Shown here in pieces: positions 12,508-29,318 of a DNA stretch of 31,050 nt. The notes under the pieces are model-generated. The model did not search any database and was not told where the DNA came from. It was given only the letters and a program-made list of their open reading frames with translations. This stretch comes from a virus. Taxonomy: Duplodnaviria; Caudoviricetes. Within the stretch, counting starts at the first letter, position 1, and the number at the start of each line of letters is the position of its first letter. The stretch is taken from IMG/VR virus record IMGVR_UViG_3300044490_000111, positions 1-31,050 of that record; one strand, written 5' to 3'. Both the position numbers and the translations under genes were made by a program.

Positions 12508-12539
12508 AATCGTTACGCGAGGTGCTGTAAATTTGTCAA
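12508..12539 (-). promoter_or_regulatory. Promoter-like motif upstream of the head/tail operon
   Basis: TTGACAAATTTACAGCACCTCGCGTAACGATT, followed by a 9-bp hairpin (12483-12506) that includes the RBS. Confidence 0.55.
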
Positions 12540-15500
12540 GAGACTTTCGCGGAATTTCCCGTTCCCGCCGCCGCCTGCGTCCCTTGAAGCGTTGCCAGTT
12601 CGGCATTCGCCTTGTCGATTTCCCGCTGGTACTTCGGCAGGACCTTACCGTTTTTCCCACGGAAGTTCGACGCGGTTTGGATGTACGACGTCAACTGCAA
12701 AATCCGCCCCGCCTGTTTCTTCGCTGCCGCCGCTGCCTCTTCCTTGGCAACTTGGTCCGCTGGCTTCTGTAACTGCCGTATCTGCCCCTCCACTTCCATC
12801 CCGCCCTCAGACATGAGCGGCGTCGCCATCACGCCAGCGTTTTCCTTTCGCAAGCGCTCCCCTTCCGCCTGATTCGCGTCGGCTTTCTGGTGTGCCGCTT
12901 GCAACCGCTGCTTCACCGCGTCGATCCCGACAATCCCGATCCGTTTCTCCGCGTTCGCGACGGCTGCTTCCCGGCTCGCTCCGTACCCCAGTGCCATCCC
13001 GCTCTTGGCGTCGGTCAAGGTGAACATCTTGCCAGGATCCTTGCCGCGGTTCTGCGCCATTGTCTTGTGAGTGATGAACTCCACGTCTTCCAGCCCTTTG
13101 ATTTTCGCTGCCTCCGCGTCAGGAACGTTTACCTCCCCCTGCGCCGTCTTGACCGTGTATGTTTTGTCTGCCGGAGGCTTCGGCTTCAACCCGGCAGTCG
13201 CCTTATGCGCGAGCCGTGCGGTTTCGTCTTTTGTGGACTGCGCCGCCTTGCCCTCTTCGTCGGTCTTCCGCTTGGCATGGGCAATCGCGTCTTTGGCGAT
13301 GTCGTGGTGAGTCTTGCCGCTCGCCAACGGGAGAGTCATCGGAGGTGCCTTGGGTTTCTCTGACGGCTTCGGTTGTTCCTGCGCTGCCGGTTTGACGACC
13401 CCCGGTTCACTCGCCGGTTTTTCTTCGCCAGTCTTCCAGCCTTCATCCTTAGTGACCGGTCCGCGGAATGTGTGCGTGCTTGTCTGAGCCCAACTGTTTT
13501 CGATCTTGACCGTCGTCAACTGCTGGGTATCTGTGCCACTCCAGGTCGATTTGGGATCGGTCGGATGGAACGCGGGCGTCTTCCTCGTCTGCGTGCGAAC
13601 GCTGATGACCTTGCCCTTCTCGCCGTCGATTGTCACTTCCTCGCCTACTTTCAATGCGGCGGCAGCTGCCTGCGGCGTTTCTTTGGTGGTCAAGGCATCT
13701 GCTGTTTCCTTCCCCGTCCACGACATGTCTTGCTGTGCCTTCCGGGATGCATCTGCCAAATCGGGACGCACCTTGGTGATGGCTTTCGTCAGGTCGTCAT
13801 ACTGATCCTGATGGATGCCGGCAAACGCTACCCCCACGGCGCCTTCATCCAACAGGTCTGGATTCTCCAGCATGTGGTGCAAGGCTTTCGCCCGCTCGCC
13901 GGTGCCGATGTTGATGAATTCCGGCTCTTTGACTGCGGCAGCTGTTTCCGTTGGCGTCGCTTCCCCCTTGTGGGCGAACTGGCCCTTGTTCTTCGCGCCG
14001 CCACGCGGGTGCGCGCTTTCGTCCCAATTGGCGTCAGTTTGTGCCTGCACTGGTGCCGCGGATGCGCGCTTCGCCTGCATGGCTTCCCACTCCGGGTCCT
14101 CACGATCACCACGCATGATCGTCCGCGCTTCAAACACCGGACGCCCGGACGGGCCGATACGCCATTCCGACTCGCCGAACCGACCGGACGTCGGATCGAA
14201 CGTTCCCCGGTTGCCAGTCGCCGACTTGATCTGAGCCGCATCGAACACGATGAAGCTGTCAGCTTTCAACTTCGCATCGTAGTAGTCTTTGAAGATAATC
14301 CCATCAAATCCCTTAGCCTTCGCCTGCCGTTGGATTTTCTCCGCTACACTCGCGTCGTTCAGCATCTGGTACGGGCGCCGTCCAGAAAACGGCATGTCGG
14401 CAATCGTCATGTCAATCCCGTGCTGCGCAAGCACCTGGATCAGCTTGTCCGGATTCTGCGGTCGAATCCCCAACGACCGCAAGTCGATCGGCTTCTCCAT
14501 CTTCAGGAACGCCGGGACGATTTGGCTTCCCACGCCGATCGTGCTGCTCTTCCATTGCAACGTCACGGGATCAATCTGGCTCGTGGCGGATCGCGCCGCC
14601 CGCTTTCGCTCTCGCTCGCTGGCGTCCCGCGCCTTCGACGCCATCTGCGCGGCTTCCTTCTTTGTCTCCGGCGACATCGCCGCCATCATCTGCTCTTGGG
14701 GCATGGTCCAGTCCACGGACAGTTTCTTCAGGTCACCAGCCAACTTCTCAGCCTGCTTGAACGTCCCCGACCCGACAGCAAACCCGCTCGCCGCATGCAG
14801 CACGCCATACAGGTCACCGTCTTCGCTCAGCCTGCGCAGCACAAGCCCAGGCGTCTTGGTACTCCACGCCGGAGTCTCCAGCGTCTGTTCTGCGCCATCA
14901 TCGCCCATGACGTGCGCCTTGACTGTCGCGTCTGCTGGCCTGACCGGCTTCTCGGGTTCCTTGCCGGGTTCGAAGTCCAGCGGCTCTTCTGATCCTGAGA
15001 ATTTGCCAGCGAACTCAGGATTCGAACTGAAGTAGTGCCATCCAATCGCCGCCAAGTCACTCGTGGATCCCGGTCCGCCGAACTCGCTGAACTCTTTGGC
15101 CGTGCCGTGGTACACGCGCAGCGGCTGTCCAGTGTCGTCCTTCACCTGGGAGTTGCCGAACCATGACTTGAATTCTGGCGTCTCGGTGACGGGACCCTTC
15201 GGCTGTGGCGTCGATTGCGGTTGCGTCTCTGCCTGATAGAACGTCCTGCCGTACCCGGAATCTGTCGTTCCCTTGTCCGGTCCATCCAGCCACGTGAACT
15301 TCCACCGCGTGTACTGATCGAACGCGCCATCTGTTCCGAGAATCTTCACGGCCTGTAGCTGACCGCTCTCTGGATTTGTGGTCCATGCGACCATGCCAGC
15401 CTCTGGAGGAACACGTGCAACACCAGTGTCGCCTGCATACCGCGTCCCCGGAGGTAGCTTCGGCGCTTCTGGCATATCGGCTGGCGTTGTCGTTGCGAAC

Positions 15501-16465
15501 GGACTGGAGCTGACGACTGGCGGGGCGCCTGTGCTTGGTGTATTTGGCTGTTCCTGGCCCTTCACGACATCCAAGAAATCAGACAGCCCGTATGTTGGTC
15601 GGCCCCGCGTCGCTTTGACGTGCTCGTCGTACAGCGCCTGGGCAGTATCAACCGCCGAGCCCTTCTTGGCAAACAACCCGCCTTTCCCGCGGGGGTGTTC
15701 TTCCTCTTCCCATTGACCTTCGAAGACTCGCGGAATGCCGTTGAAGAGGCTCCATGATTCGAACTGGGCATAGAATGCCCGAGCGTTGAAGGCGTCTCGC
15801 ACCAAGGGCGTACTGCCACCTCTATGGTGTCGATCGAAGAACGCTTGGGCTATCTTCCGATCGCTGTCGGTCAAGATCTCGTCGTCCGCGAAGTGCTTTC
15901 TGGCTTGCGCACTCTGGTGTGGCTTGAACAACCGTTCCGCGCCGACCGCGGCAGCGTAGGGCGCCTTCAGCGTCTCCAGAGTCCCGACGATCCTTTCCTT
16001 GGTCCACTTCCCTGGTTCGTTGACCGCCTGGTACAAGACACTCCGTGCCAAGTCTTCATCATGCCCCGCAGACGCCAATTCCTGCCCTGCGTACATGATG
16101 CCTGCTTCGACCTGCAGTAAGTCGAGCCGCTTACTCACCGACAGCCGCGACCCAATCTGGTTCGCCGCGCGTTCAGCTTCCAGCTTGGCATCGTTCCAGA
16201 CTTCCTCACCAAAGACCGAGCGGATAAGGGCACCCGCCTCTGCCGCTTCCGTGGGTGTGATTTCCTTGGCGCGCCTGTTCAGGTCCTTGTAGCCGCTATC
16301 CTGCCGCCACTTGCCCTTGTTCAAAGACGAGACGGTCTGCGCCACGTCGCCGTCTCCGTTGCGGACGAACAGCCCCGCGTCGCCACGCGGATGCTCCGCC
16401 TCGTCCCAGGTTTCAAACACCGGACGTCCACCACGTCCAACACGCCAAACGCTCGTCGCTGTCAT
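12536..16465 (-). CDS. Large polyvalent protein A with an ADP-ribosyltransferase (ART-PolyVal-like) domain and several unknown domains
   Basis: Likely start MTATSVW (GGAGG RBS), 1309 aa. Motifs 'TPEFKSWFGNSQV.D..G.PL.VYHGT...YFS' and 'GFDGIIF...FIVFD..QIKSATGNRGTFDP'. Three W(D/E)E..HPR..G.F motifs. Confidence 0.8.
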   Translation of the reverse strand: MTATSVWRVGRGGRPVFETWDEAEHPRGDAGLFVRNGDGDVAQTVSSLNKGKWRQDSGYKDLNRRAKEITPTEAAEAGALIRSVFGEEVWNDAKLEAERAANQIGSRLSVSKRLDLLQVEAGIMYAGQELASAGHDEDLARSVLYQAVNEPGKWTKERIVGTLETLKAPYAAAVGAERLFKPHQSAQARKHFADDEILTDSDRKIAQAFFDRHHRGGSTPLVRDAFNARAFYAQFESWSLFNGIPRVFEGQWEEEEHPRGKGGLFAKKGSAVDTAQALYDEHVKATRGRPTYGLSDFLDVVKGQEQPNTPSTGAPPVVSSSPFATTTPADMPEAPKLPPGTRYAGDTGVARVPPEAGMVAWTTNPESGQLQAVKILGTDGAFDQYTRWKFTWLDGPDKGTTDSGYGRTFYQAETQPQSTPQPKGPVTETPEFKSWFGNSQVKDDTGQPLRVYHGTAKEFSEFGGPGSTSDLAAIGWHYFSSNPEFAGKFSGSEEPLDFEPGKEPEKPVRPADATVKAHVMGDDGAEQTLETPAWSTKTPGLVLRRLSEDGDLYGVLHAASGFAVGSGTFKQAEKLAGDLKKLSVDWTMPQEQMMAAMSPETKKEAAQMASKARDASERERKRAARSATSQIDPVTLQWKSSTIGVGSQIVPAFLKMEKPIDLRSLGIRPQNPDKLIQVLAQHGIDMTIADMPFSGRRPYQMLNDASVAEKIQRQAKAKGFDGIIFKDYYDAKLKADSFIVFDAAQIKSATGNRGTFDPTSGRFGESEWRIGPSGRPVFEARTIMRGDREDPEWEAMQAKRASAAPVQAQTDANWDESAHPRGGAKNKGQFAHKGEATPTETAAAVKEPEFINIGTGERAKALHHMLENPDLLDEGAVGVAFAGIHQDQYDDLTKAITKVRPDLADASRKAQQDMSWTGKETADALTTKETPQAAAAALKVGEEVTIDGEKGKVISVRTQTRKTPAFHPTDPKSTWSGTDTQQLTTVKIENSWAQTSTHTFRGPVTKDEGWKTGEEKPASEPGVVKPAAQEQPKPSEKPKAPPMTLPLASGKTHHDIAKDAIAHAKRKTDEEGKAAQSTKDETARLAHKATAGLKPKPPADKTYTVKTAQGEVNVPDAEAAKIKGLEDVEFITHKTMAQNRGKDPGKMFTLTDAKSGMALGYGASREAAVANAEKRIGIVGIDAVKQRLQAAHQKADANQAEGERLRKENAGVMATPLMSEGGMEVEGQIRQLQKPADQVAKEEAAAAAKKQAGRILQLTSYIQTASNFRGKNGKVLPKYQREIDKANAELATLQGTQAAAGTGNSAKVS

Positions 16466-16487
16466 CGCAGTGCCTCCGCAGTTCGCC

Positions 16488-16546
16488 AATCATTACCGCA
16501 GATGAGCTGATTTTGCAACCGGAACAAGCCCGCGGGACTCCCGCGG
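16488..16546 (-). promoter_or_regulatory. Promoter-like motif with an upstream palindrome
   Basis: TTGCAA-N17-TAATGATT (16518-16488) and the palindrome CCGCGGGA-C-TCCCGCGG (16530-16546). Confidence 0.5.
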
Positions 16547-20313: not shown

Positions 20314-20348
20314 GGTAGTGTCCTAATTTGAAAGACACGGTAGGTCAC
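20314..20348 (+). repeat. Left terminal inverted repeat
   Basis: GGTAGTGTCCTAATTTGAAAGACACGGTAGGTCAC. Confidence 0.95.
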
Positions 20349-20387
20349 GGGAGTGTCCCATCGGTCGCGTTTTGTAAACCCTTCCTG

Positions 20388-20654
20388 TTAGGTAGCTCTG
20401 TCTTCGGCAGGCGGATTCTCCGGGGGCACGTCGGATCCGCCGGGACTCTCTGGCCCCCACGCATCCGGGCCCCATGCGAGACTTGCCAGCGCTTTGTCGT
20501 CTTCCGTCTGCGGCGGTTCTTTGGGCTTCAACGCCAGGTCCGCCTCCAAAATCGCCTTCGCCCCCGCGCAAATCCGGTCCAACTGCTCAGGACTCAGCCG
20601 ATAGTCCGGGTTCGGAACATGCGGCTTGTGGGACCGCTCGTCGTCTGTGGACAT
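20388..20654 (-). CDS. Small protein homologous to the nested ORF at 26825-27052
   Basis: 88 aa with GGAG RBS. Positions 20464-20588 match 26853-26977 at 114 of 125 nt. Confidence 0.7.
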   Translation of the reverse strand: MSTDDERSHKPHVPNPDYRLSPEQLDRICAGAKAILEADLALKPKEPPQTEDDKALASLAWGPDAWGPESPGGSDVPPENPPAEDRAT

Positions 20655-20673
20655 GGCAAGGTCTCCAGATGGG

Positions 20674-23541
20674 TTAGGCTTGGGCGCGTTCCAGGTTCAG
20701 TGCCAAGAGCGCCGCCAACAGGTCATCATCGGTCATCGCTGGGTCCCAGCCGTAGGCGGCAAAGACGGCAGCGTCGAGTCTCTGGTGAGCTAGACTGAGC
20801 CACGTGTCGCCCCTGTTATACAGTTCCGTCAGCGTCCGTTGTTTCAGTTCCTTGGCGCATTCCGCGTCCTTGGGAACCAGCCGCGGATAGCGGACTGTGC
20901 CGATGCCTCGGTGGTCCGGCTCGTGCACGTACCGTGCCCACGGTCCCGTGGTGCTGCCGGGGAATTCCAACACCTCTTCCCGCGTCCACTCCGGCGGGTT
21001 CAGCCAGTTGGAGCGAAGTCGGTCTAACTCCTGCGCCGCTTCTGCAATCGCGTCGCGCTGCTCGTCTGCCGGCTTGGGGAACGGGAAGGTTTCAAAACAG
21101 GTTGTGGGGGTGTAACGGGGACGGGTCTCCAGTCGCGTGCCAAGTCGCAAGCCCCAAACCTCGTGCACACGCGAGTGCAACACGCCAAGAAAGCAGTCTT
21201 GCGCGGCTGCAAGGACAATCAGCTGATGATCGGGCAGCGTCGGTGATTCGGCCCAGAGAAACAATCGGTGCTTGGAAACCGTTGTCGTAATGAGGAACCG
21301 ACTCAAGCCTGCGAGTTTCGCGCGCATGCCGCTTCGTGGCTCCACATGTAACCACCACCTCTTTCGATAAGACTCGCGTTTGTTCCCTTGCCGCTCCGGG
21401 TACACATGGTCGCGCACGTACTCAAACGGGGCTTCGTATTGTGAGGCATCCAGTAACGTTGATTCGGTGCCAAAGTCGATAATCCACACGCCACGGTTGC
21501 GGCGGGTAATATCCAGTCCGTTGGCCCACGGCAACACGACGTCACTATTCGGACGTCCGTGGGGAGTTGGTGTTCGCAGGAACTGCAAGGCTTGTCCAGC
21601 CGTGATGTCAAAGGCCCCGCCTTTGGTGTCGCCCATGTAACTAATGTCTAGGTTTGCCGTCAACCGCGCGGCTTGCGTGATGTCCGCCGCTGCTGACAAG
21701 TTGGCGTTGACCGTTCGCACCTTGTGCCCATCGAGAACCAAGTCCTTTTCGGTCCCGTCGTCAAATCCGACCATGCTGACGTGGACGTTGGCCCCGTTCA
21801 GAATCCAGTCGCGATCGCTCTCAGCGAAGAAAATTCCACCGCTCTCCTTGATCCTGGCTAACGTGTCCCGATTGGCACCGCCACGAATGCCTTGGGTCGC
21901 CAGCAGCCCGGCGCGACGGCACTTGCCTTCCTTGACTTGCGAGCGTGCCTTTTCAAACCAGTAGCAGCACAAGTCCGCTTCCGGTCGTACTCGCTCGCCC
22001 CAGAGACGGAACATCGCGTCGACGTATTCGTCGCCCAGATTCGAGCGGAGCAGCTTCCCTCCCAGGAACGGCGGGTTGCCGACGATGAAATCAGCCGCGG
22101 GCCATGTGGGCTCTTTCGGATTCTGCGGGTCGCTCAGGTCCAAGATGGCGTCCATGTGCTGGATGCTCTCGATGGGCTCCAGCACGGGTCTCAGGTTGGG
22201 AGTGAATCCATTGTCCCGTAGCCACTGCAGATAGCCGATCCAGATTGCCACTTGCGCCAGTTCTTGGGCGTACCGATTGATGTCTAGTCCGTGCAGTTGC
22301 GTTGGGCTGATGCGCGGCAACTGAGCAATTCCGTAGCTTCTGCCAAACGAGTAGACTTCCTTCCCAAGCTCCAGAAGCAGACGCAGCGTCACATACAGAA
22401 AATTCCCCGACCCACACGCTGGGTCGAGCACCGTGACATCCGCCAGCCGCTCCATGAAGTCCAACAGCAGGCGGTCGAACTTCTGACGAACCTTTGACTC
22501 TCTCCCCGTCTTCCCGCGCTTGAACTTCGGAATCAGTGCCTCGCATTGTCGGCGCACGTCGTCCCACTCTCGACGCAAAGGCACCATCACGACAGGATTC
22601 ACTATCGTCTCGATGTCGCCGCGGCTGGTGTAGTGGGCACCGATCTGAGCGCGCTTGTCGGGATCAAGTAGCCGTTCGAACAACGTTCCAAAAATGGATG
22701 GTTCGATTGATCCCCAATCCATCGCTACAACATCGACCAGGACGTTGATTTCCTTTTCCAGCAACGGAATGACCTCGGCGTCGGCAAACAGACCCCCATT
22801 GAAGTAGGCAATGTCATCCGTTCCGAATGTCCCCCCGTTGGACATAGCTTCAAACAAATCAGAGAGCATTTTGCCGAGTCTTGTCGGGTCCTTTCGCGAT
22901 CCTGCCAGTAGCCGAGAGAAGACCTGGTTGGGAAGTAGCTCGATGTCTTCGGCGAACATGCAGAAGATCAGCTTCATCAGAAAATGCGCTGCTTCCTGCG
23001 ATGGCACTTTGCGTACTCGCATCCCGTCTGCTATCTGGCCAAACCGCTCAGCAGCCTGCTTTGTGACGCCCTCCCTGGTCACTCCGGGTTTCAGTGACTC
23101 AGGATCCGTGAATACCCTGCGAAGAATGTCCAGATTCTTCGGATCGGCTAGCCCGGCTAGGTCGAAGGTATATACCTTCTTGGGGGTATCGTTGAAGTTG
23201 GTGTGGACTTCGAACCGGTCCATGTCACAAACGACGAGCAGTTTCGGGTTCTCCAGGGACTCCCGGTATTGGAGCAACTGGGCGTAGGCAGCCTTTAGGT
23301 CTTTCTTCTTTCCCTTGTACTCCCAGCCGAAGTGCCCGCGCATCCACACGTCAGCCCAGCCGTCGCCGCCGCCGGTCTTCTGGACGCCCCGCTCAAAGGT
23401 GTACCACGCCCCTTGCGGGTCCGCCGCCGCTGGCTTGGGCTGCTGGAGCAATTCGCACAGGTCCAGGAAATGCTGTTGGCAGGCGGAACGTTCCGACAGC
23501 GTGACGTGTTTCCACTTGCGGGTGAATTCGTCGACGTCCAT
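20674..23541 (-). CDS. MmeI-like type IIG/IIL restriction-modification enzyme (nuclease + adenine MTase + TRD)
   Basis: 955 aa. N-terminal 'ADVW...EYK....AY.QL' nuclease motif, motif I DPACGSGNF, motif IV NPPF, C-terminal 'RYTP..CFETFPFP' and 'RTLT.LYN'. Confidence 0.92.
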   Translation of the reverse strand: MDVDEFTRKWKHVTLSERSACQQHFLDLCELLQQPKPAAADPQGAWYTFERGVQKTGGGDGWADVWMRGHFGWEYKGKKKDLKAAYAQLLQYRESLENPKLLVVCDMDRFEVHTNFNDTPKKVYTFDLAGLADPKNLDILRRVFTDPESLKPGVTREGVTKQAAERFGQIADGMRVRKVPSQEAAHFLMKLIFCMFAEDIELLPNQVFSRLLAGSRKDPTRLGKMLSDLFEAMSNGGTFGTDDIAYFNGGLFADAEVIPLLEKEINVLVDVVAMDWGSIEPSIFGTLFERLLDPDKRAQIGAHYTSRGDIETIVNPVVMVPLRREWDDVRRQCEALIPKFKRGKTGRESKVRQKFDRLLLDFMERLADVTVLDPACGSGNFLYVTLRLLLELGKEVYSFGRSYGIAQLPRISPTQLHGLDINRYAQELAQVAIWIGYLQWLRDNGFTPNLRPVLEPIESIQHMDAILDLSDPQNPKEPTWPAADFIVGNPPFLGGKLLRSNLGDEYVDAMFRLWGERVRPEADLCCYWFEKARSQVKEGKCRRAGLLATQGIRGGANRDTLARIKESGGIFFAESDRDWILNGANVHVSMVGFDDGTEKDLVLDGHKVRTVNANLSAAADITQAARLTANLDISYMGDTKGGAFDITAGQALQFLRTPTPHGRPNSDVVLPWANGLDITRRNRGVWIIDFGTESTLLDASQYEAPFEYVRDHVYPERQGNKRESYRKRWWLHVEPRSGMRAKLAGLSRFLITTTVSKHRLFLWAESPTLPDHQLIVLAAAQDCFLGVLHSRVHEVWGLRLGTRLETRPRYTPTTCFETFPFPKPADEQRDAIAEAAQELDRLRSNWLNPPEWTREEVLEFPGSTTGPWARYVHEPDHRGIGTVRYPRLVPKDAECAKELKQRTLTELYNRGDTWLSLAHQRLDAAVFAAYGWDPAMTDDDLLAALLALNLERAQA

Positions 23542-23547
23542 GCCGCC

Positions 23548-23575
23548 AAGGTAATCGCGGCAATGCGCCCGTCAA
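23548..23575 (-). promoter_or_regulatory. Promoter for the RM gene, probably producing a leaderless mRNA
   Basis: TTGACG-N16-TACCTT ends 6 nt before the ATG; no SD sequence. Confidence 0.45.
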
Positions 23576-23584
23576 GCGGGGAGT

Positions 23585-24473
23585 CTACCCGTACTGGACG
23601 ATCGTGCTGAAGAATTCCTCGAAGCTCCACAGGTGGTCCGTCAGGCCAGCCATCATCGCCGCGGTCGGGCGCCGCTTGCCCGCCCTGCCGCTGCCGTCCG
23701 GATACCGCGTCCGCCAAGACGGCGACCGCTGCCGCTAGGCACTCAAACTTCTTTGAGAACCCCAGCGCCAACCGGGCGAACCGCTTCATAAATGTGCGGA
23801 TCGTCAGGTTGTGTCGCTCGACATGGCTCGTGCAAATGTCCCACTCGGAGAACTGCCCCTTGACCACCTTCCGCTGCGTCCCGACTATCTCGGACGGCGT
23901 GTAGGGCATCGAGGCGTTGCGGAAGTCTTTGATGATCTGCCCGTACTTGGCGTAGGGGCCGAACGCCAGGTCAACGGCTTCCGGGTAGGCGGCAAAGCCG
24001 TCCGTGCTCAGGCGGATAACCGTCTGGTAGCCGCCAGTCTGGAAAGCGTGCGGGTCTGAACTGTGCGGGTTCGGCCAGCTGACCCGCGCGGCCAAGTCCA
24101 TCAGGAAGCGCCGTGCCATGTCCGCCGACCGCTTGCCAAGGGCGTAGCAGGCAAGCAGCTTCGTGTCTTCGTCGATGGCGGTGAACAAGTACACGTCGCC
24201 AATCGTGCCGCTCAGTTGCTTCTGCTCGGTCGTCAGTTTGTCCTGCTTCTTGCCGACGAACGTCCAGATTTCATCACACTCGACGTGCCGCAGCGTCAGA
24301 CCCTGAAGACGTTCGTCCAGGAAGTTACGGGCGCACTCGCCAAGCCGCACTATCAGCCGCCCAATGCTGTCCCGGTGCACCCCCGTGATTCGCTCTGTCG
24401 AACGAATCGAGTTGCCCTCGCAGAGCAGCCGCAGGACCATCATTCTCGTGGCGAGCTTCAGCGTGTTAGCCAT
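23585..24473 (-). pseudogene. IS1-family DDE transposase, frameshifted near the C-terminus
   Basis: HTH 'EGNSIRSTERITGVH' and catalytic motifs 'DEIW', 'TDG..AY', 'VERHN.TIR'. After 'LAAAVAV' (about 23717) the usual YNF segment is missing, and the tail 'TAAMMAGLTDHLWSFEE' is in another frame ending at 23585. Confidence 0.85.
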
Positions 24474-24562
24474 TGCCGTCTTGACCTCCAATAGCTATTC
24501 GTGTAATACGAAAACCTCTTGGGCGGATTCGCTCGGAATTGCTGTAATACAGGAACCTCGTC

Positions 24563-24805
24563 ATGCCGAAGAAACGCAAGGTCGGGCGTCCCAAGGGCGA
24601 CCCGAAAAAGAACCGGTCGGAAATCGTCCTGCTCAGACTCACCAAAGCTGAACGGGTCCACCTGGAACGCGCCGCTGGCGGAAATCTGTCCGACTGGATG
24701 CGGCACGTTCTCTTGCCAGCGGCAGGACGTGCCCATAAAACGAAAGACGGAAAGCGTGGGAATCGAACCCCATCAGCGAACGCTGAGCCTCTGGGCGGCT
24801 TATAG
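24563..24805 (+). CDS. Small ribbon-helix-helix-like DNA-binding protein, divergent from the transposase
   Basis: 'GRPK...LLRLT..E...LERAA...LSDWMR..LL'. The last roughly 19 codons overlap the tRNA on the other strand. Confidence 0.7.
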   Translation: MPKKRKVGRPKGDPKKNRSEIVLLRLTKAERVHLERAAGGNLSDWMRHVLLPAAGRAHKTKDGKRGNRTPSANAEPLGGL

Positions 24806-24840
24806 AGCCGCTGCGCCAACCAGGACGCAGGACGCCTTCC
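24748..24840 (-). tRNA. Non-canonical 9/3 tRNA (allo-tRNA-like), anticodon UAU, long variable arm, discriminator G
   Basis: Acceptor GGAAGGCGT/ACGCTTTCC (9 bp); D arm TGCGTC-CTGGTT-GGCGCA; anticodon arm GCGGC-TCTATAA-GCCGC; variable arm TCAGC-GTTC-GCTGA; T arm GGG-TTCGATT-CCC. No encoded CCA. Confidence 0.8.
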
Positions 24841-24845
24841 ACCGC

Positions 24846-25245
24846 GGCGCCCGTGGTCATTCGCCACGGGCGCCCAGTTTTCCAGAATCCAGGGCTTGTC
24901 TATGGGGTCGTTTCGTGGTAGCCTAAACGACGAACCCTGAGCGGTACGTCGCCACATGGCGCGTTTCCTTGCACAAGACAACGATGGGTTCCACGGGCCG
25001 CATACGCTGCAACGGATGCGGCCCACGTCATTGACGACGGTACGCACGGTCATCCGTGCCCGTCGCGAGTAAGACGAATCGCGAGAAGCATTCTGCACCT
25101 CCTTTCTGGGTTGTGCATGTGCAAACCCTCCGCGAATGACCGACTTGGCGGATTCAGGCTGCCAACCGTTGCCCGCCATGCCGGAAGCTACCGGGTGGGA
25201 TTACAGACGGCCCGATGACTCCCCGGTGAGTCGTTGGGCCGCTTC
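24846..25245 (-). ncRNA. Hairpin-rich region upstream of the tRNA (possible precursor or regulatory RNA)
   Basis: Stems at 24846-24874 (perfect 11 bp), about 24907-24931, 24995-25024, 25035-25065, 25108-25128 and 25208-25241. Confidence 0.45.
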
Positions 25246-25340
25246 TATTTTGCCGACACCTCGTCTGACGAGCCGTTCTGCGAACACGGTCTGAGGCAAG
25301 AAGAATCCGAGCCCCCACCAAGGAACGGCCAGTGTTCGGA

Positions 25341-25372
25341 AATCAGTACGGCCTATCCTGGAAATTTGTCAA
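25341..25372 (-). promoter_or_regulatory. Promoter-like motif pointing into the hairpin/tRNA region
   Basis: TTGACAAATTTCCAGGATAGGCCGTACTGATT. Confidence 0.55.
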
Positions 25373-25387
25373 TAGGGGTCCCGCGGC

Positions 25388-25425
25388 AAGAAACGAAAAA
25401 TGCCGCTGGCTTGCCCAGCGGCATT
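25388..25425 (-). terminator. Intrinsic terminator just inside the right end of the IS
   Basis: AATGCCGCTGG-GCAAG-CCAGCGGCATT followed by TTTCGTTTCTT. Confidence 0.75.
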
Positions 25426-25444
25426 CATCTGGCACGTGCCAGGT

Positions 25445-25479
25445 GTGACCTACCGTGTCTTTCAAATTAGGACACTACC
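25445..25479 (-). repeat. Right terminal inverted repeat
   Basis: Exact reverse complement of 20314-20348. Confidence 0.95.
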
Positions 25480-28400
25480 GTTTTCGGCGGCGATGCCGCG
25501 CCTTCCCCCTTGTGCGCAAACTGCCCGCCGGTCTCCCGCGGATGTTCCTCTTCCCGCCAGTCTGGATCGGACTCCAGCACGCGGTTGTGACTGATTGCAC
25601 CAAGGCTCTCCACCATGCGTCGCTTTGCCGCCCACTTGCGTAGCGGACCCACGTCCCCTGCCTCCAGCCACGCGCGGAACTGCGGCATGGTCAACGCGGT
25701 CACCGGACCACACTGCCAGCCGTCCTGGTAGTTCGCAAGGTAGCCGTCGACCGCCTCTTGCTTCGTCAGGAACCCGACCATCACCTTGTGCTCGTCGAAC
25801 CCGCCATGCTGGTCGCTCTGGTCAACCACAAACACCAGCTCCGCTTCCGGATGCGGTCCCAGGAAGACGTCCACCGCGTCGCCGTCCGCCCCCTTGGTCT
25901 TCCTTCCGCCAACCTTGGCGATGTAGCCGTAGTCCCACGCCAGCTCCGATTTCCAAGGAACGCCTTCCGGAGAGACACCCCGGCGAATCGAACCCTTTGG
26001 ATTCTCAATTGCGATGTTCAGCCCCTGGACGTCGACGTGGCCCTTGGCGTAGCGACCGGATTTCCGCTGGGCATCCGTCAGTTCTGTATCCGTTCTGGCA
26101 GCAGCCAGCCTGATCGCTGTTGGCAGGTCTAACCCATTGCTACTTGCTTGCGCCTCCACCACAAACCGCGGAATTCCGTTCATTGTTCGCCAAGTGCGCG
26201 ACTCAGCGACCCTGACTCGCCCGGCCAGCATCCACAGCGGGACGTCGCCCTTTACCTGAGCCCCATGCCCATACGCCAACGAATCAGCCAGAGTGTTCCC
26301 GACTTGGCGCTCGGCGAACATCCTCTGGTTTTTCAGCTGGTCCGTATCGGGAACCAACTGTGAAATCGGGACATCGACGGCGTGGACGGCGATGTCTTGA
26401 CCGGGATACGCCATCTGGCCGAAGGTTTTCGCCATTCCAGGGTATAGCGACAGCGAGACGTATCCCGAGCGACTCTGTAGACTATGGCGCCGCTTGCCGC
26501 TCGTCTTCAGAATACCTTGCCCTTCAATGTCGTGCTTGGCGGCTGTCCCGTGGTACATCCGCAGCTTGGGACCACCCGAGAACGACGGCGGTTTCGCCCG
26601 CTGTTCTTTCAACCACGCGCTCAGCCGCTTCACGCCTTCGGGAGATGGATCAGCGTAAAACACGTCATCCCATTGGCGATCGTTCGTCAAATCGAAAGAC
26701 CCTTCATCCAGGTCTGGAGCGTGTACCTTGTCCGCTCGCTGGTAGCCTCCCTTGGCCCAGCGACCGCGATTGTCCCGTGGCTGGTCTTCGTCGTAGGCTT
26801 CGGCCACGAATCGCGGCATCCCGTTCAGGAGCTGCCACCTGGACCATAGGCTTCCGGGCCCCATGCCAGACTCGCCAACACCTTGTCGTCGTCTGTCTTG
26901 GGCGGTTCCTTGGGCTTCAACGCCCGGTCCGCCTCCAAAATCGCCTTCGCCCCCGCGCAAATCCGGTCCAACTGCTCCGCGCTGAGAACTAGCGACTCCT
27001 GCTTCCGCGAAGACGGCTTGCTTGACGGCTTGGATTGTCCGTTGCCTGACATCGGTCTTCTCCTTTTTCCCCTTTGCGGCTTTGTACTCACCCGCCCCGG
27101 CGTTGATGGCATCGGAAATCGGACCCTTCCGATTCACGAGCGTGTCGTACACAGTAAGTATTCGCTCGGCTTCGTCCGCTATTCGGCGATTTTCCTCCAG
27201 ATTCAGTACATTCCCAGCCCCGGCGACCGCTTCGGCCCTACGCTTCGACGCAACCGCTAGAAAATCGCGCACCTCCCTAGACATGTCCATCCGGATCGCC
27301 GACTTCAGCTCGTTCCGCGGAACGAACAGGCTTTCCGCGGATTCAATGTCTTCCATCCCAGGCAGAAATCCCCCCTTTCTGCCGGGCGCAGGTTCAACCC
27401 GCGGTGTCTCAGCCATCTCCCGCGACATCTCAGCGACGACCTTCAGGCTCGTTTCCTTGCCATCTTCGTCTCGCTTGGCAAGCAACCGAAACAGCTGATC
27501 CTGTAAATCGTGGTCCTTCAGGTGTTCGCCCACGGCAAGGGCCACATCCTTGTCGAGCAGCCCACGAACTAGATCGTCGAACGCCCGGTTACTCAGACCC
27601 TGCAACACCATCGCCTCTGACGCCAGCCCGCCTTTCAAGCTTACGCCGCGCTTGGCAAATTCATCCGGTGTCGCCTTGGAGTCCCGCAGAAACTTGGCGG
27701 CGTCGATCGCCGTTCCCTGCCCCTCTGCGATGTTTGTCAGGGCGCCCAACGCTCGGGCCTCGACCGCTGTCTTGGCTTCATCGTTGTCAATGTACCGGAT
27801 AGCCAAGTTGTCAACGCCCAATCTCCGCGCCAGCTCCAAGCGATGATGACCATTCACCACGTAGGTCTTGCCATCCTCCGGGTCCCGCCACACGCTGATG
27901 ACGCCAGCAAAGTTCGGGTTCCAGACTTTGACCGACTTCAACTTGTCGGTCACGCCTTCCTTGTCCACGTTCTGCTTGAACTGGAACCTGTCGGGGTCGA
28001 CTTGCAATCCGGACGTTGGGCAGTTGTAGACGTAGCCCTTGGTGATTTCTCCACCGCTCCAAGGCTGCTTGCCTTCTGCCCTGGCGCTGCCTTTTGGCTT
28101 GTCGGATTCCCGGACTGATACGGGCGCTTCCGGTTGTCGCAACTGGCGTTCAATCTCGGTCGCCGTCTCGTCGCTCGCCACCCTCCAGAACGACTTGCCG
28201 CTTGGCCGAAACTGCCACTTGCCGCCTTCAATCTTGACGTCGGATGCCTTACCGTGAACAGTGACTTGTGGTGGCGCATTCTTCGCCACAAACTGCCCGG
28301 CATTCTCTGGCTGACCGCGGGGATGCTCAGCTGAATCCCAGGATTCCACCAAGCGGTTACAGCCGTTCATGCGCAGCCACCGCGCACGCGACTCATTGAC

Positions 28401-29318
28401 TCGCTCCCCTCGTCCAATTTCGTCCCAGATTTGGTCGAGCAACGCCAGGTCTACGTCACTGTCAGATTCCACGGGACGCCCATCGCCGACCGGTTGTGAC
28501 GACAGTGACTCTGCCACGGTGTGCCTCTTGCGGGCAAGGTACTCAGTGAAGACGCGGCGTGACAAACTCCCTTCCGACAAGTCGAATGCTGCGTCCATCG
28601 TCACGCCATGCCGGTCCCACCAGTCCCGCCCATCGGCCGTCTTGAACAGGTCGCTTAGGCGGCTTGCGTTTGGAAATTGCCACTTGACCTGCTTGGCGTT
28701 GTCCAGGTCTTCAACGGCGCAGTCGAACCCGAGTCTGGGCCACACCTTGTAGCCGATCGCCTTGCGCTCTCCGCTGTCGGCTCGCTCCGCAATCAGTTCG
28801 ATCCGCTTGGCGCCGGCGCGCGATGCGCTCGCGACTAGGCTCTCCATCGCCCGAGTCATCGTGCCTCGCCCCTGACGTGATTCGTCGACGTAGGCATCGG
28901 CGATCGTTACGACCATTCCATCTTCCGGCGTTTTCTTCACCTGATACAGCAACGTGTAGTCGTCAGTCGCCATCTTGATGTGGACGTACTGTGTTCCGGA
29001 TGAAGCCACGGTCACTTCGGCAGTTTCATCCCAGTCGATTCCGACGATGCCTGCTAAGTCTTCTGGCTTGGCGCCTTTCCCAAGCATCGCGACCGCCGTC
29101 TTCTCGGGACACGATCCAACAACCTCGATTGGAGACCCCCGGCGCCGCGTCTCCCAGCCCTTGACGGCGCCTCCCGTCGTCCCGTACTCCGCGATGAAGC
29201 GCGGCGTGCCGTTGCGAACACGCCATCGCTTCGTCAGCCCCGTGGCGGCGCTTGGACGATACGCCGATACGTTCGGCAGATGGCCTGGAGTTACAGCGCA
29301 CGTCTCAGCGAGCGACAT
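25467..29318 (-). CDS. Large polyvalent protein B: GNAT + ParB-like + ART-like + inorganic pyrophosphatase domains
   Basis: 1283 aa. GNAT 'VDESRQGRG...GYKVWPRLGF'; ParB-like 'DPDRFQFK...YVVNGHHRL'; ART-like 'MYHGT...GYVSLS'; pyrophosphatase 'IENPKGS.R.G...DYGYI...GADGD.VDVF.G...FDEHKVM.GF'. Confidence 0.85.
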   Translation of the reverse strand: MSLAETCAVTPGHLPNVSAYRPSAATGLTKRWRVRNGTPRFIAEYGTTGGAVKGWETRRRGSPIEVVGSCPEKTAVAMLGKGAKPEDLAGIVGIDWDETAEVTVASSGTQYVHIKMATDDYTLLYQVKKTPEDGMVVTIADAYVDESRQGRGTMTRAMESLVASASRAGAKRIELIAERADSGERKAIGYKVWPRLGFDCAVEDLDNAKQVKWQFPNASRLSDLFKTADGRDWWDRHGVTMDAAFDLSEGSLSRRVFTEYLARKRHTVAESLSSQPVGDGRPVESDSDVDLALLDQIWDEIGRGERVNESRARWLRMNGCNRLVESWDSAEHPRGQPENAGQFVAKNAPPQVTVHGKASDVKIEGGKWQFRPSGKSFWRVASDETATEIERQLRQPEAPVSVRESDKPKGSARAEGKQPWSGGEITKGYVYNCPTSGLQVDPDRFQFKQNVDKEGVTDKLKSVKVWNPNFAGVISVWRDPEDGKTYVVNGHHRLELARRLGVDNLAIRYIDNDEAKTAVEARALGALTNIAEGQGTAIDAAKFLRDSKATPDEFAKRGVSLKGGLASEAMVLQGLSNRAFDDLVRGLLDKDVALAVGEHLKDHDLQDQLFRLLAKRDEDGKETSLKVVAEMSREMAETPRVEPAPGRKGGFLPGMEDIESAESLFVPRNELKSAIRMDMSREVRDFLAVASKRRAEAVAGAGNVLNLEENRRIADEAERILTVYDTLVNRKGPISDAINAGAGEYKAAKGKKEKTDVRQRTIQAVKQAVFAEAGVASSQRGAVGPDLRGGEGDFGGGPGVEAQGTAQDRRRQGVGESGMGPGSLWSRWQLLNGMPRFVAEAYDEDQPRDNRGRWAKGGYQRADKVHAPDLDEGSFDLTNDRQWDDVFYADPSPEGVKRLSAWLKEQRAKPPSFSGGPKLRMYHGTAAKHDIEGQGILKTSGKRRHSLQSRSGYVSLSLYPGMAKTFGQMAYPGQDIAVHAVDVPISQLVPDTDQLKNQRMFAERQVGNTLADSLAYGHGAQVKGDVPLWMLAGRVRVAESRTWRTMNGIPRFVVEAQASSNGLDLPTAIRLAAARTDTELTDAQRKSGRYAKGHVDVQGLNIAIENPKGSIRRGVSPEGVPWKSELAWDYGYIAKVGGRKTKGADGDAVDVFLGPHPEAELVFVVDQSDQHGGFDEHKVMVGFLTKQEAVDGYLANYQDGWQCGPVTALTMPQFRAWLEAGDVGPLRKWAAKRRMVESLGAISHNRVLESDPDWREEEHPRETGGQFAHKGEGAASPPKTVVS
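26825..27052 (-). CDS. Small out-of-frame gene nested inside polyprotein B
   Basis: AAGGAG lies 7 nt before the ATG at 27052; 75 aa. Differences from the copy at 20388-20654 are mostly synonymous in this frame. Confidence 0.65.
   Translation of the reverse strand: MSGNGQSKPSSKPSSRKQESLVLSAEQLDRICAGAKAILEADRALKPKEPPKTDDDKVLASLAWGPEAYGPGGSS

Follow-up and report, generated by a model that had tools for sequence, protein, structure and literature searches.

An allo-tRNA(UAU)-type gene in an IS1-family element of a phage, and its probable coupling to an AUA codon cluster in the transposase

The window (the whole stretch of DNA analysed, 31,050 nucleotides of a virus record) encodes a tRNA-like RNA with a UAU anticodon that is a real gene of the allo-tRNA(UAU) type and has a specific partner, the transposase of the insertion sequence (IS) in which it lies. 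The allo-tRNA(UAU) class has already been published; what is new is that related elements interchange RNA bodies that share the UAU loop, including a D-armless body with G3-U70 and A73. Judged from the sequences, the RNA and a cluster of AUA codons in the transposase are very probably coupled.

Structure of the RNA and its family

The window RNA (Table 1) has a 9-bp acceptor stem, a 3-bp T stem, a long variable arm with a 5-bp stem and discriminator G73; its anticodon loop reads UCUAUAA, with C at position 33, and CCA is not encoded. The 9/3 branch, the long variable arm, the discriminator G and the loop are all present as a first-pass annotation of this DNA had described them. The fold has a z-score of −3.09, with 1 of 200 shuffles as good. 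The annotation had also expected tRNA finders to miss the gene; ARAGORN does call the window copy, as tRNA-Ile(TAT) at 24746-24841, but it detected just one of four homologs (L010, L011, L014, L016), and the expectation is thus wrong in part. The Rfam tRNA-Sec model (RF01852) matches at 36.4 bits, under its gathering score of 47; together with a 12-bp rather than 13-bp branch and UAU rather than UCA, this led us to reject tRNA-Sec identity. An amber (CUA) reading was also rejected, as homolog loops read YUUAUAW.

A pattern search returned 26 metagenome and 3 viral loci, to which four genome loci and the window were added; two of the three viral matches (L048, L050) do not parse as the 9/3 UAU family and were dropped, leaving 32 parsed rows, of which 29 are distinct. 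In the resulting alignment 91.5% of structure cells pair, compared with 46-56% in slid controls, and both sides vary at 18 of the 29 pairs of the family structure; the search pattern partly fixed D3, the anticodon stem and the T loop. Pair 9 of the acceptor is Watson-Crick in all 29 distinct homologs (23 G-C, 6 U-A), and the fourth T pair of the alternative 8/4 fold, which was thus rejected, forms in none of them. Covariation among the homologs thus supports the 9/3 branch.

In the D arm the window differs from its family. The annotation's 6-bp D stem is indeed the best fold of the window copy alone (pair 12-29 probability 0.97; −40.4 vs −38.4 kcal/mol), but it does not describe the family, which has a 5-bp D stem with a loop of 5-6 nt; of the 29 homologs, the window is the sole one able to form the sixth pair. 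In the family, positions 10-12 instead pair with the linker after the anticodon stem, forming an extra 3-bp helix that closes the D and anticodon arms. Positions 10, 11 and 12, which were outside the search pattern, pair in 26, 28 and 29 of 29 homologs, RNAalifold recovers the helix unprompted, and the window has U-A where the other homologs have C-G.

Other positions are conserved to different degrees. G73 is found in 27 of 29 homologs, the remaining two being off by one base in register, the variable stem is present in every parsed row, and A3-U70 occurs in 26 of 29; the serine-type identity marks, for which the annotation had pointed to the long variable arm, hold. At position 33, where the pattern accepted either C or U, 28 of 29 have U and the window is the exception, so C33 is as atypical as had been stated. 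Acceptor pair 7 is open in 16 of 29 and pair 31-39, the last of the anticodon stem, in 15 of 29; CCA is encoded in 0 of 29. The window RNA scores 90.1 bits against the family model, of which it is a training member. Among 151 genomes of the phylum, model R1 gave high scores in G001 only (two matches, 96 and 91.5 bits), with 46 weaker matches of 37-47 bits known by score alone. A blastn search with the RNA found one 21-base chance match in plasmids and none in phages. The perfect 11-bp hairpin 5′ of the RNA is possibly a leader element; similar hairpins precede the RNA in L009 and L014.

Allo-tRNA(UAU) outnumbers every other group of allo-tRNAs and has been classed as 8/4 (Mukai et al. 2017, PMC5389517; reviewed in PMC7609411); several of its 8/4 rows come from metatranscriptomes (PMC5389517 supplement). 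The present family resembles this group in its 12-bp branch, which combines a long acceptor stem with a short T stem, in its long variable arm, in having G73 in most members, in its stem mismatches and loop (published as YUUAUAA), and in a suspected transposon tie: an association of UAU allo-tRNAs with transposons or toxin-antitoxin systems has been suggested, and a published Edaphobacter pseudogene overlaps a transposon-related ORF (PMC5389517). It differs in being 9/3, in having relatives in Planctomycetota, in the extra helix and in its tie to one group of transposases with AUA clusters; the extra helix may resemble a junction variant in Figure S5 of that paper. None of 119 examined UAU rows (of 186 in the PMC5389517 supplement) is labelled 9/3, and the 9/3 species given in the paper carry only Arg, Leu or UAA anticodons; the motifs of the present family do not occur in its supplementary table. 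The Arg, Leu and UAA species have the 9/3 branch, the long variable arm and Ser or Ala identity marks in common with the present family, and in E. coli they have been shown to be missense or nonsense suppressors; they differ in anticodon and in having a long D stem with tetraloop in place of a 5-bp D stem and extra helix (PMC5389517, PMC7590224). That tRNA-Sec-like D stem, an allo-tRNA trait, does not occur in the family. A published-type 8/4 allo-tRNA(UAU) was found amid small genes of a viral contig (L125:2969-3053), with no IS1 transposase within 3 kb.

The IS1-family element and its AUA codons

The RNA lies inside an IS that in turn lies inside a phage, as the annotation had it: the element is bounded by 35-bp inverted repeats, its transposase matches Pfam PF03400 above cut-off (E 2.5e-8), and the 31-kb record has capsid, tail-tube, neck and polyvalent-protein genes. 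IS1-family elements have terminal inverted repeats and make target duplications of 8-9 bp; the duplication is imperfect in the window (7 of 9 flank bases match) and a perfect 8 bp in four of five relatives checked. The order within the element is ∼640 bases, the RNA, a small divergent ORF, the transposase, an MmeI-like gene and an 88-aa ORF. Insertion occurred at the end of a polyvalent-protein gene, whose stop codon is now within the IS end.

Table 1. Positions of features in the window and of related RNAs at other loci
Feature	Position	Strand	Basis
tRNA-like RNA, UAU anticodon, 9/3 branch	24748..24840	-	fold, ARAGORN, Rfam, homolog covariation
Perfect 11-bp hairpin, separated from the 5′ end of the tRNA by five bases	24846..24874	-	sequence itself
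IS1-family element with cargo, 5166 bp	20314..25479	-	35-bp repeats, flank comparison
Terminal inverted repeat, 35 bp, upstream of tRNA	25445..25479	-	perfect repeat
Terminal inverted repeat, 35 bp, downstream of cargo	20314..20348	+	perfect repeat
IS1-family DDE transposase, frameshifted near 23718	23585..24473	-	Pfam PF03400, homolog comparison
Small divergent ORF, 80 aa	24563..24805	+	relatives have homologous ORFs of 56-66 aa in this position
Cargo: MmeI-like (type IIL) restriction-modification protein, 955 aa	20674..23541	-	four MmeI domains
Cargo: 88-aa ORF	20388..20654	-	no family match
Phage polyvalent protein gene, 1283 aa, InPase and ParB-like parts	25467..29318	-	Pfam/PHROG
Large polyvalent phage protein, two ART-PolyVal domains	12536-16489	-	
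D-armless RNAs	L006:2174-2242; L008:2365-2429; L054:873-937; L100:980-1048		
Ordinary-looking tRNA-Ile(UAU)	L128, L131, L132, L135, L136, L139		6/401 Planctomycetia genomes

Plasmid homologs of the transposase have 36-38% identity, and three of four are annotated as IS1 family; D67, D158 and E223 are invariant in the alignment, and a model of the L009 transposase (pLDDT 86.9) matches DDE transposases. An intact autonomous transposase is absent from the window copy, which carries the frameshift listed in Table 1. Contigs from run X7, which span 23491-23803 and do not extend over the RNA, are identical to the window including the frameshift, and run X6 has an additional 2-base loss at 24176. We take the group to be a single-ORF, ISMhu11-like IS1 subgroup with passenger genes. 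It is like IS1-family elements with passengers in its DDE transposase with N-terminal HTH, GGTAGTG ends, 8-bp duplications and cargo on both sides; classical IS1 limits itself by a −1 frameshift, whereas the present group has one ORF.

The small divergent ORF overlaps the 3′ part of the tRNA on the opposite strand and has no Pfam or PHROG match; it likely encodes a putative DNA-binding regulator. On the minus strand at 24900-25130, a strong ribosome-binding site (AGGAGG) precedes a 13-codon ORF that overlaps the next start and is possibly a broken or tiny cargo gene. A second, ∼89% identical copy of 20464-20566, joined 352 bases beyond 26500, was seen in runs X1 and X6, and the repeat is thus common to the 88-aa cargo ORF and the phage gene. 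No empty-site joint was seen in contigs of four runs, a result that cannot establish absence. The closest transposases are in Planctomycetota genomes at 19 of 21 loci, and the phage host is therefore probably a planctomycete; a transposase search in viral contigs gave one pattern match and none confirmed.

Among the 26 metagenome loci found by RNA pattern alone, 19 have a transposase downstream on the same strand (three of these being partial or weak), and the other seven have <600 bases of sequence on the downstream side. The converse fails, since 28 of the 60 transposases placed in a quick tree lack an RNA of this kind upstream (of 76 distinct rows, 16 had been left out because their cover or their upstream DNA was too short). 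On this quick tree RNA presence requires eight changes, four of them forced by strong branches. The annotation had called the RNA a passenger; its location in an IS stands, but it is not chance cargo, because it recurs throughout one group of the IS1 family, whose transposases keep AUA codons that match its anticodon. Five elements (L010, L011, L006, L008, L014) have cargo upstream of the RNA, which by eye we take to be defence- or toxin-antitoxin-like (a DUF433/PIN-like pair in L011, an HTH and peptidase pair in L008).

The AUA codons fall in one segment, codons 179-217 (L009 numbering), just before catalytic Glu 223; in the L009 model it forms a strand pair and a short helix, placed after the second Asp and ahead of the catalytic Glu. 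In-frame ATA accounts for 93 of 194 Ile codons within the segment and 4 of 407 outside it, a comparison in which the limits were drawn after viewing the data and the rows are related, so that p-values overstate. Out-of-frame ATA is not enriched (11/53 inside vs 67/348 outside, and 12/81 vs 27/349), nor are other A-ending codons. Across 49 distinct transposases with at least 43% identity to L009, ATA fills column 217 in 38 of 44 rows and column 209 in 24 of 42, while 16 Ile-rich columns outside the segment have no ATA at all. AUA shifts among five columns with differing contexts; codon 217 is preceded almost invariably by ACG or ACA.

At least one AUA is found in the segment of all 32 RNA-bearing transposases and of 12 of 28 without RNA. 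In the distant group (<43% identity) the counts are 5/5 with RNA vs 2/17 without; in the close group they are 27/27 vs 10/11, with means of 2.3 and 1.3. Two elements that the RNA pattern alone brought up later, L126 and L137, have two and four. The window transposase has AUA at codons 41 and 196, the latter (column 198) being its sole AUA in the segment, and its column 217 is ATT.

The codons that replace AUA indicate its usual meaning. At columns 180, 209 and 217, the non-AUA residues of RNA-bearing rows are Ile, Val, Leu or Met; AUA in the transposases is therefore normally Ile, Ser as its normal meaning was rejected, and Ser at the main AUA columns would be a misfit. Column 217 has no Ser or Ala in the tblastn columns; in a MAFFT alignment it is Ala in 2 of 39 homologs (L117, L120). 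TilS matches were found in five of five host genomes, four above cut-off, so AUA is readable there without the RNA. Genes near RNA-bearing elements do not avoid AUA (163/1368 vs 204/1762, from a crude ORF set), which argues against broad misreading and also caps the strength that any misreading could have, and the phage uses AUA for 10 of 337 Ile codons. General Ser-for-Ile misreading at AUA directed at host or phage, a broad form of one of the functions that the annotation had offered, is thus unsupported. In a literature search that covered few subscription papers, no account was found of a tRNA-like gene that matches codons of a transposase.

Other RNA bodies with the same loop

Two further bodies occur in related elements. 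At the same element position, L009 and L097 have a 7/5 RNA whose variable arm is very long and whose discriminator is G73. Eight loci (L006, L008, L054, L061, L100, L123, L126, L137) have a D-armless RNA of about 65-69 bases with the UAU loop, and all eight of these carry G3-U70 and A73 (four called by eye, four by script). The three bodies are intermixed among close transposases on the quick tree (L009, L006, L016; L054, L065, L061). The L006 RNA has a sub-threshold Rfam tmRNA match (E 6.9e-5), and both it and the L008 RNA have weak mascRNA matches.

A search that left out the G3-U70 constraint gave 21 matches in 20 of 401 Planctomycetia genomes. Four are D-armless RNAs, all with G3-U70 and all with a transposase; six are ordinary tRNA-Ile(UAU), all with G3-C70 and none with a transposase within 1.5 kb; the other 11 lack the fold of a UAU tRNA. 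None of the IS1-group elements examined was seen to carry an ordinary tRNA-Ile(UAU). In a viral scan for D-armless forms, which was set aside, ordinary phage tRNAs dominate and a transposase is present at none of the loci.

G3-U70 with A73 is the main AlaRS signal (PMC7590224), and the long arm binds SerRS (PMC7590224, PMC5389517). Every body examined here bears either Ser marks (G73, long arm, A3-U70) or Ala marks (G3-U70, A73), as read from its sequence. A3-U70 belongs to the Ser identity set of E. coli. A second odd tRNA lies directly upstream of the UAU RNA or the transposase in L006 (2077-2152), L008 (2266-2341), L100 (891-965), L120 and L124; its anticodons in L006 and L008 are TCC and GCT, its stems are imperfect, and the arrangement resembles published polycistrons of irregular tRNAs.

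A possible brake on the transposase and its alternatives

The reading we prefer, tentatively and at somewhat less than an even chance, is that the 9/3 UAU RNA acts as a brake on the transposase of its own element, predicted to be charged with Ser and to compete at the AUA codons. The element RNA would be transcribed, processed by RNase P and given CCA, then charged by SerRS or AlaRS, both indifferent to the anticodon. The charged RNA would compete with the host lysidine tRNA-Ile2 at AUA; a share of transposase would be spoiled or stalled, growing with element copy number, and host genes, as rare users of AUA, would mostly be spared. We favour the brake because the bodies match two anticodon-blind synthetases, the ordinary Ile decoder present in the same hosts was not found on the elements, and five host genomes have TilS matches. 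A precedent is that published allo-tRNAs bearing Leu anticodons led to insertion of Ser and were lethal to E. coli (PMC5389517). The mismatches at acceptor pair 7 and pair 31-39 and the lack of encoded CCA in homologs speak against it, as do the AUA retained by 10 of 11 close-clade elements without RNA, the natural Ala at column 217, the lack of AUA avoidance in nearby genes and the failure of six published UAU species to suppress once recoded to CUA (PMC5389517). Misreading alone leaves unexplained the restriction of AUA to one segment and its absence from the 16 other Ile columns; the real variable may be that synthesis pauses once the nascent chain has reached a fixed point. IS transposases can bind co-translationally.

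The reverse function is unlikely, though a serious contender: the AUA cluster would pause ribosomes, and the RNA, as a decoder private to the element, would read AUA so that full-length transposase is made with Ile or a tolerated residue. The same co-occurrence of RNA and AUA fits this account, as does the RNA-less sister clade, which fell from 2-3 AUA to one, and when B. subtilis tRNA-Ile is mutated to UAU, IleRS still charges it and it decodes AUA (PMC3919564). That tRNA in TilS-less B. subtilis and the tRNA-Ile(UAU) of Mycoplasma mobile likewise read AUA with UAU, but both are ordinary 7/5 tRNAs that serve the whole cell, whereas the present RNA has a Ser-type body in hosts with TilS (PMC3919564; PMC3575796). 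Against it stand the Ser or Ala marks of the bodies (G73 in 27/29, G3-U70 in 8/8) in place of an Ile body, the TilS matches of the hosts, and the ordinary tRNA-Ile(UAU), which exists in the same host class but was not found on the elements; moreover, RNA-less elements with AUA at 217 have intact ends and perfect 8-bp duplications.

It is distinctly less likely that the RNA does not decode at all and instead absorbs a nuclease, modifying toxin or synthetase aimed at host tRNA-Ile2, the AUA cluster then tying transposase synthesis to the state of that tRNA. Departures from the usual core (an extra helix or no D arm), many stem mismatches and defence-type cargo in several elements are consistent with such a decoy or sensor, as are published UAU species that are inactive in translation and lie near toxin-antitoxin genes; six allo-tRNA(UAU) species failed to suppress in E. 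coli once recoded to CUA, and two of them were lethal (PMC5389517). However, a pure anticodon decoy has no need of conserved Ser or Ala acceptor marks, and no partner nuclease gene common to the elements examined was found.

That the RNA places Ser at AUA throughout the proteome, so as to harm invaders rich in AUA or to serve as an addiction factor, we consider very unlikely. The Ser identity marks and the precedent of published allo-tRNAs as toxic missense suppressors (PMC5389517) would suit this role, but the AUA-enriched gene is the element's own transposase, its neighbours do not avoid AUA and the carrier phage seldom uses it. Finally, a DNA signal in which the shared letters are a TATAA promoter box, or ATA in an antisense promoter, and the loop-codon match is coincidental is highly improbable: TTATAA is palindromic and −10-like and codon 217 has its near-constant ACG or ACA neighbour, but covarying tRNA helices flank the loop, enrichment is in-frame only and moves among five columns, and a sigma-70 promoter scan found no site.

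On the brake reading, the circuit of the window itself is likely dead, since its transposase is frameshifted, AUA 217 has been lost and U33 has become C; C33 need not by itself mean decay, because L006, an element with an unbroken match, has it too. The window copy is probably a relic, and an intact relative would make the better test object. A broader reading, which we regard as somewhat unlikely as a whole, is that a widespread IS group has its AUA cluster read by an element-encoded mischarged tRNA, with at least three unrelated bodies recruited (9/3 Ser-type, 7/5 long-arm Ser-type and a 65-69 nt D-armless Ala-type like the tRNA-like domain of tmRNA), and that targeted mistranslation would thereby serve as copy-number control.

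No set of allo-tRNAs is larger or less well explained than UAU, and a fixed partner gene with matching codons makes the question of its function directly testable. If true, the proposed coupling would be a new means by which mobile elements limit or license themselves via translation, and it would supply two natural tRNA scaffolds of interest for code engineering, the extra-helix 9/3 form and the D-armless Ala-type form.
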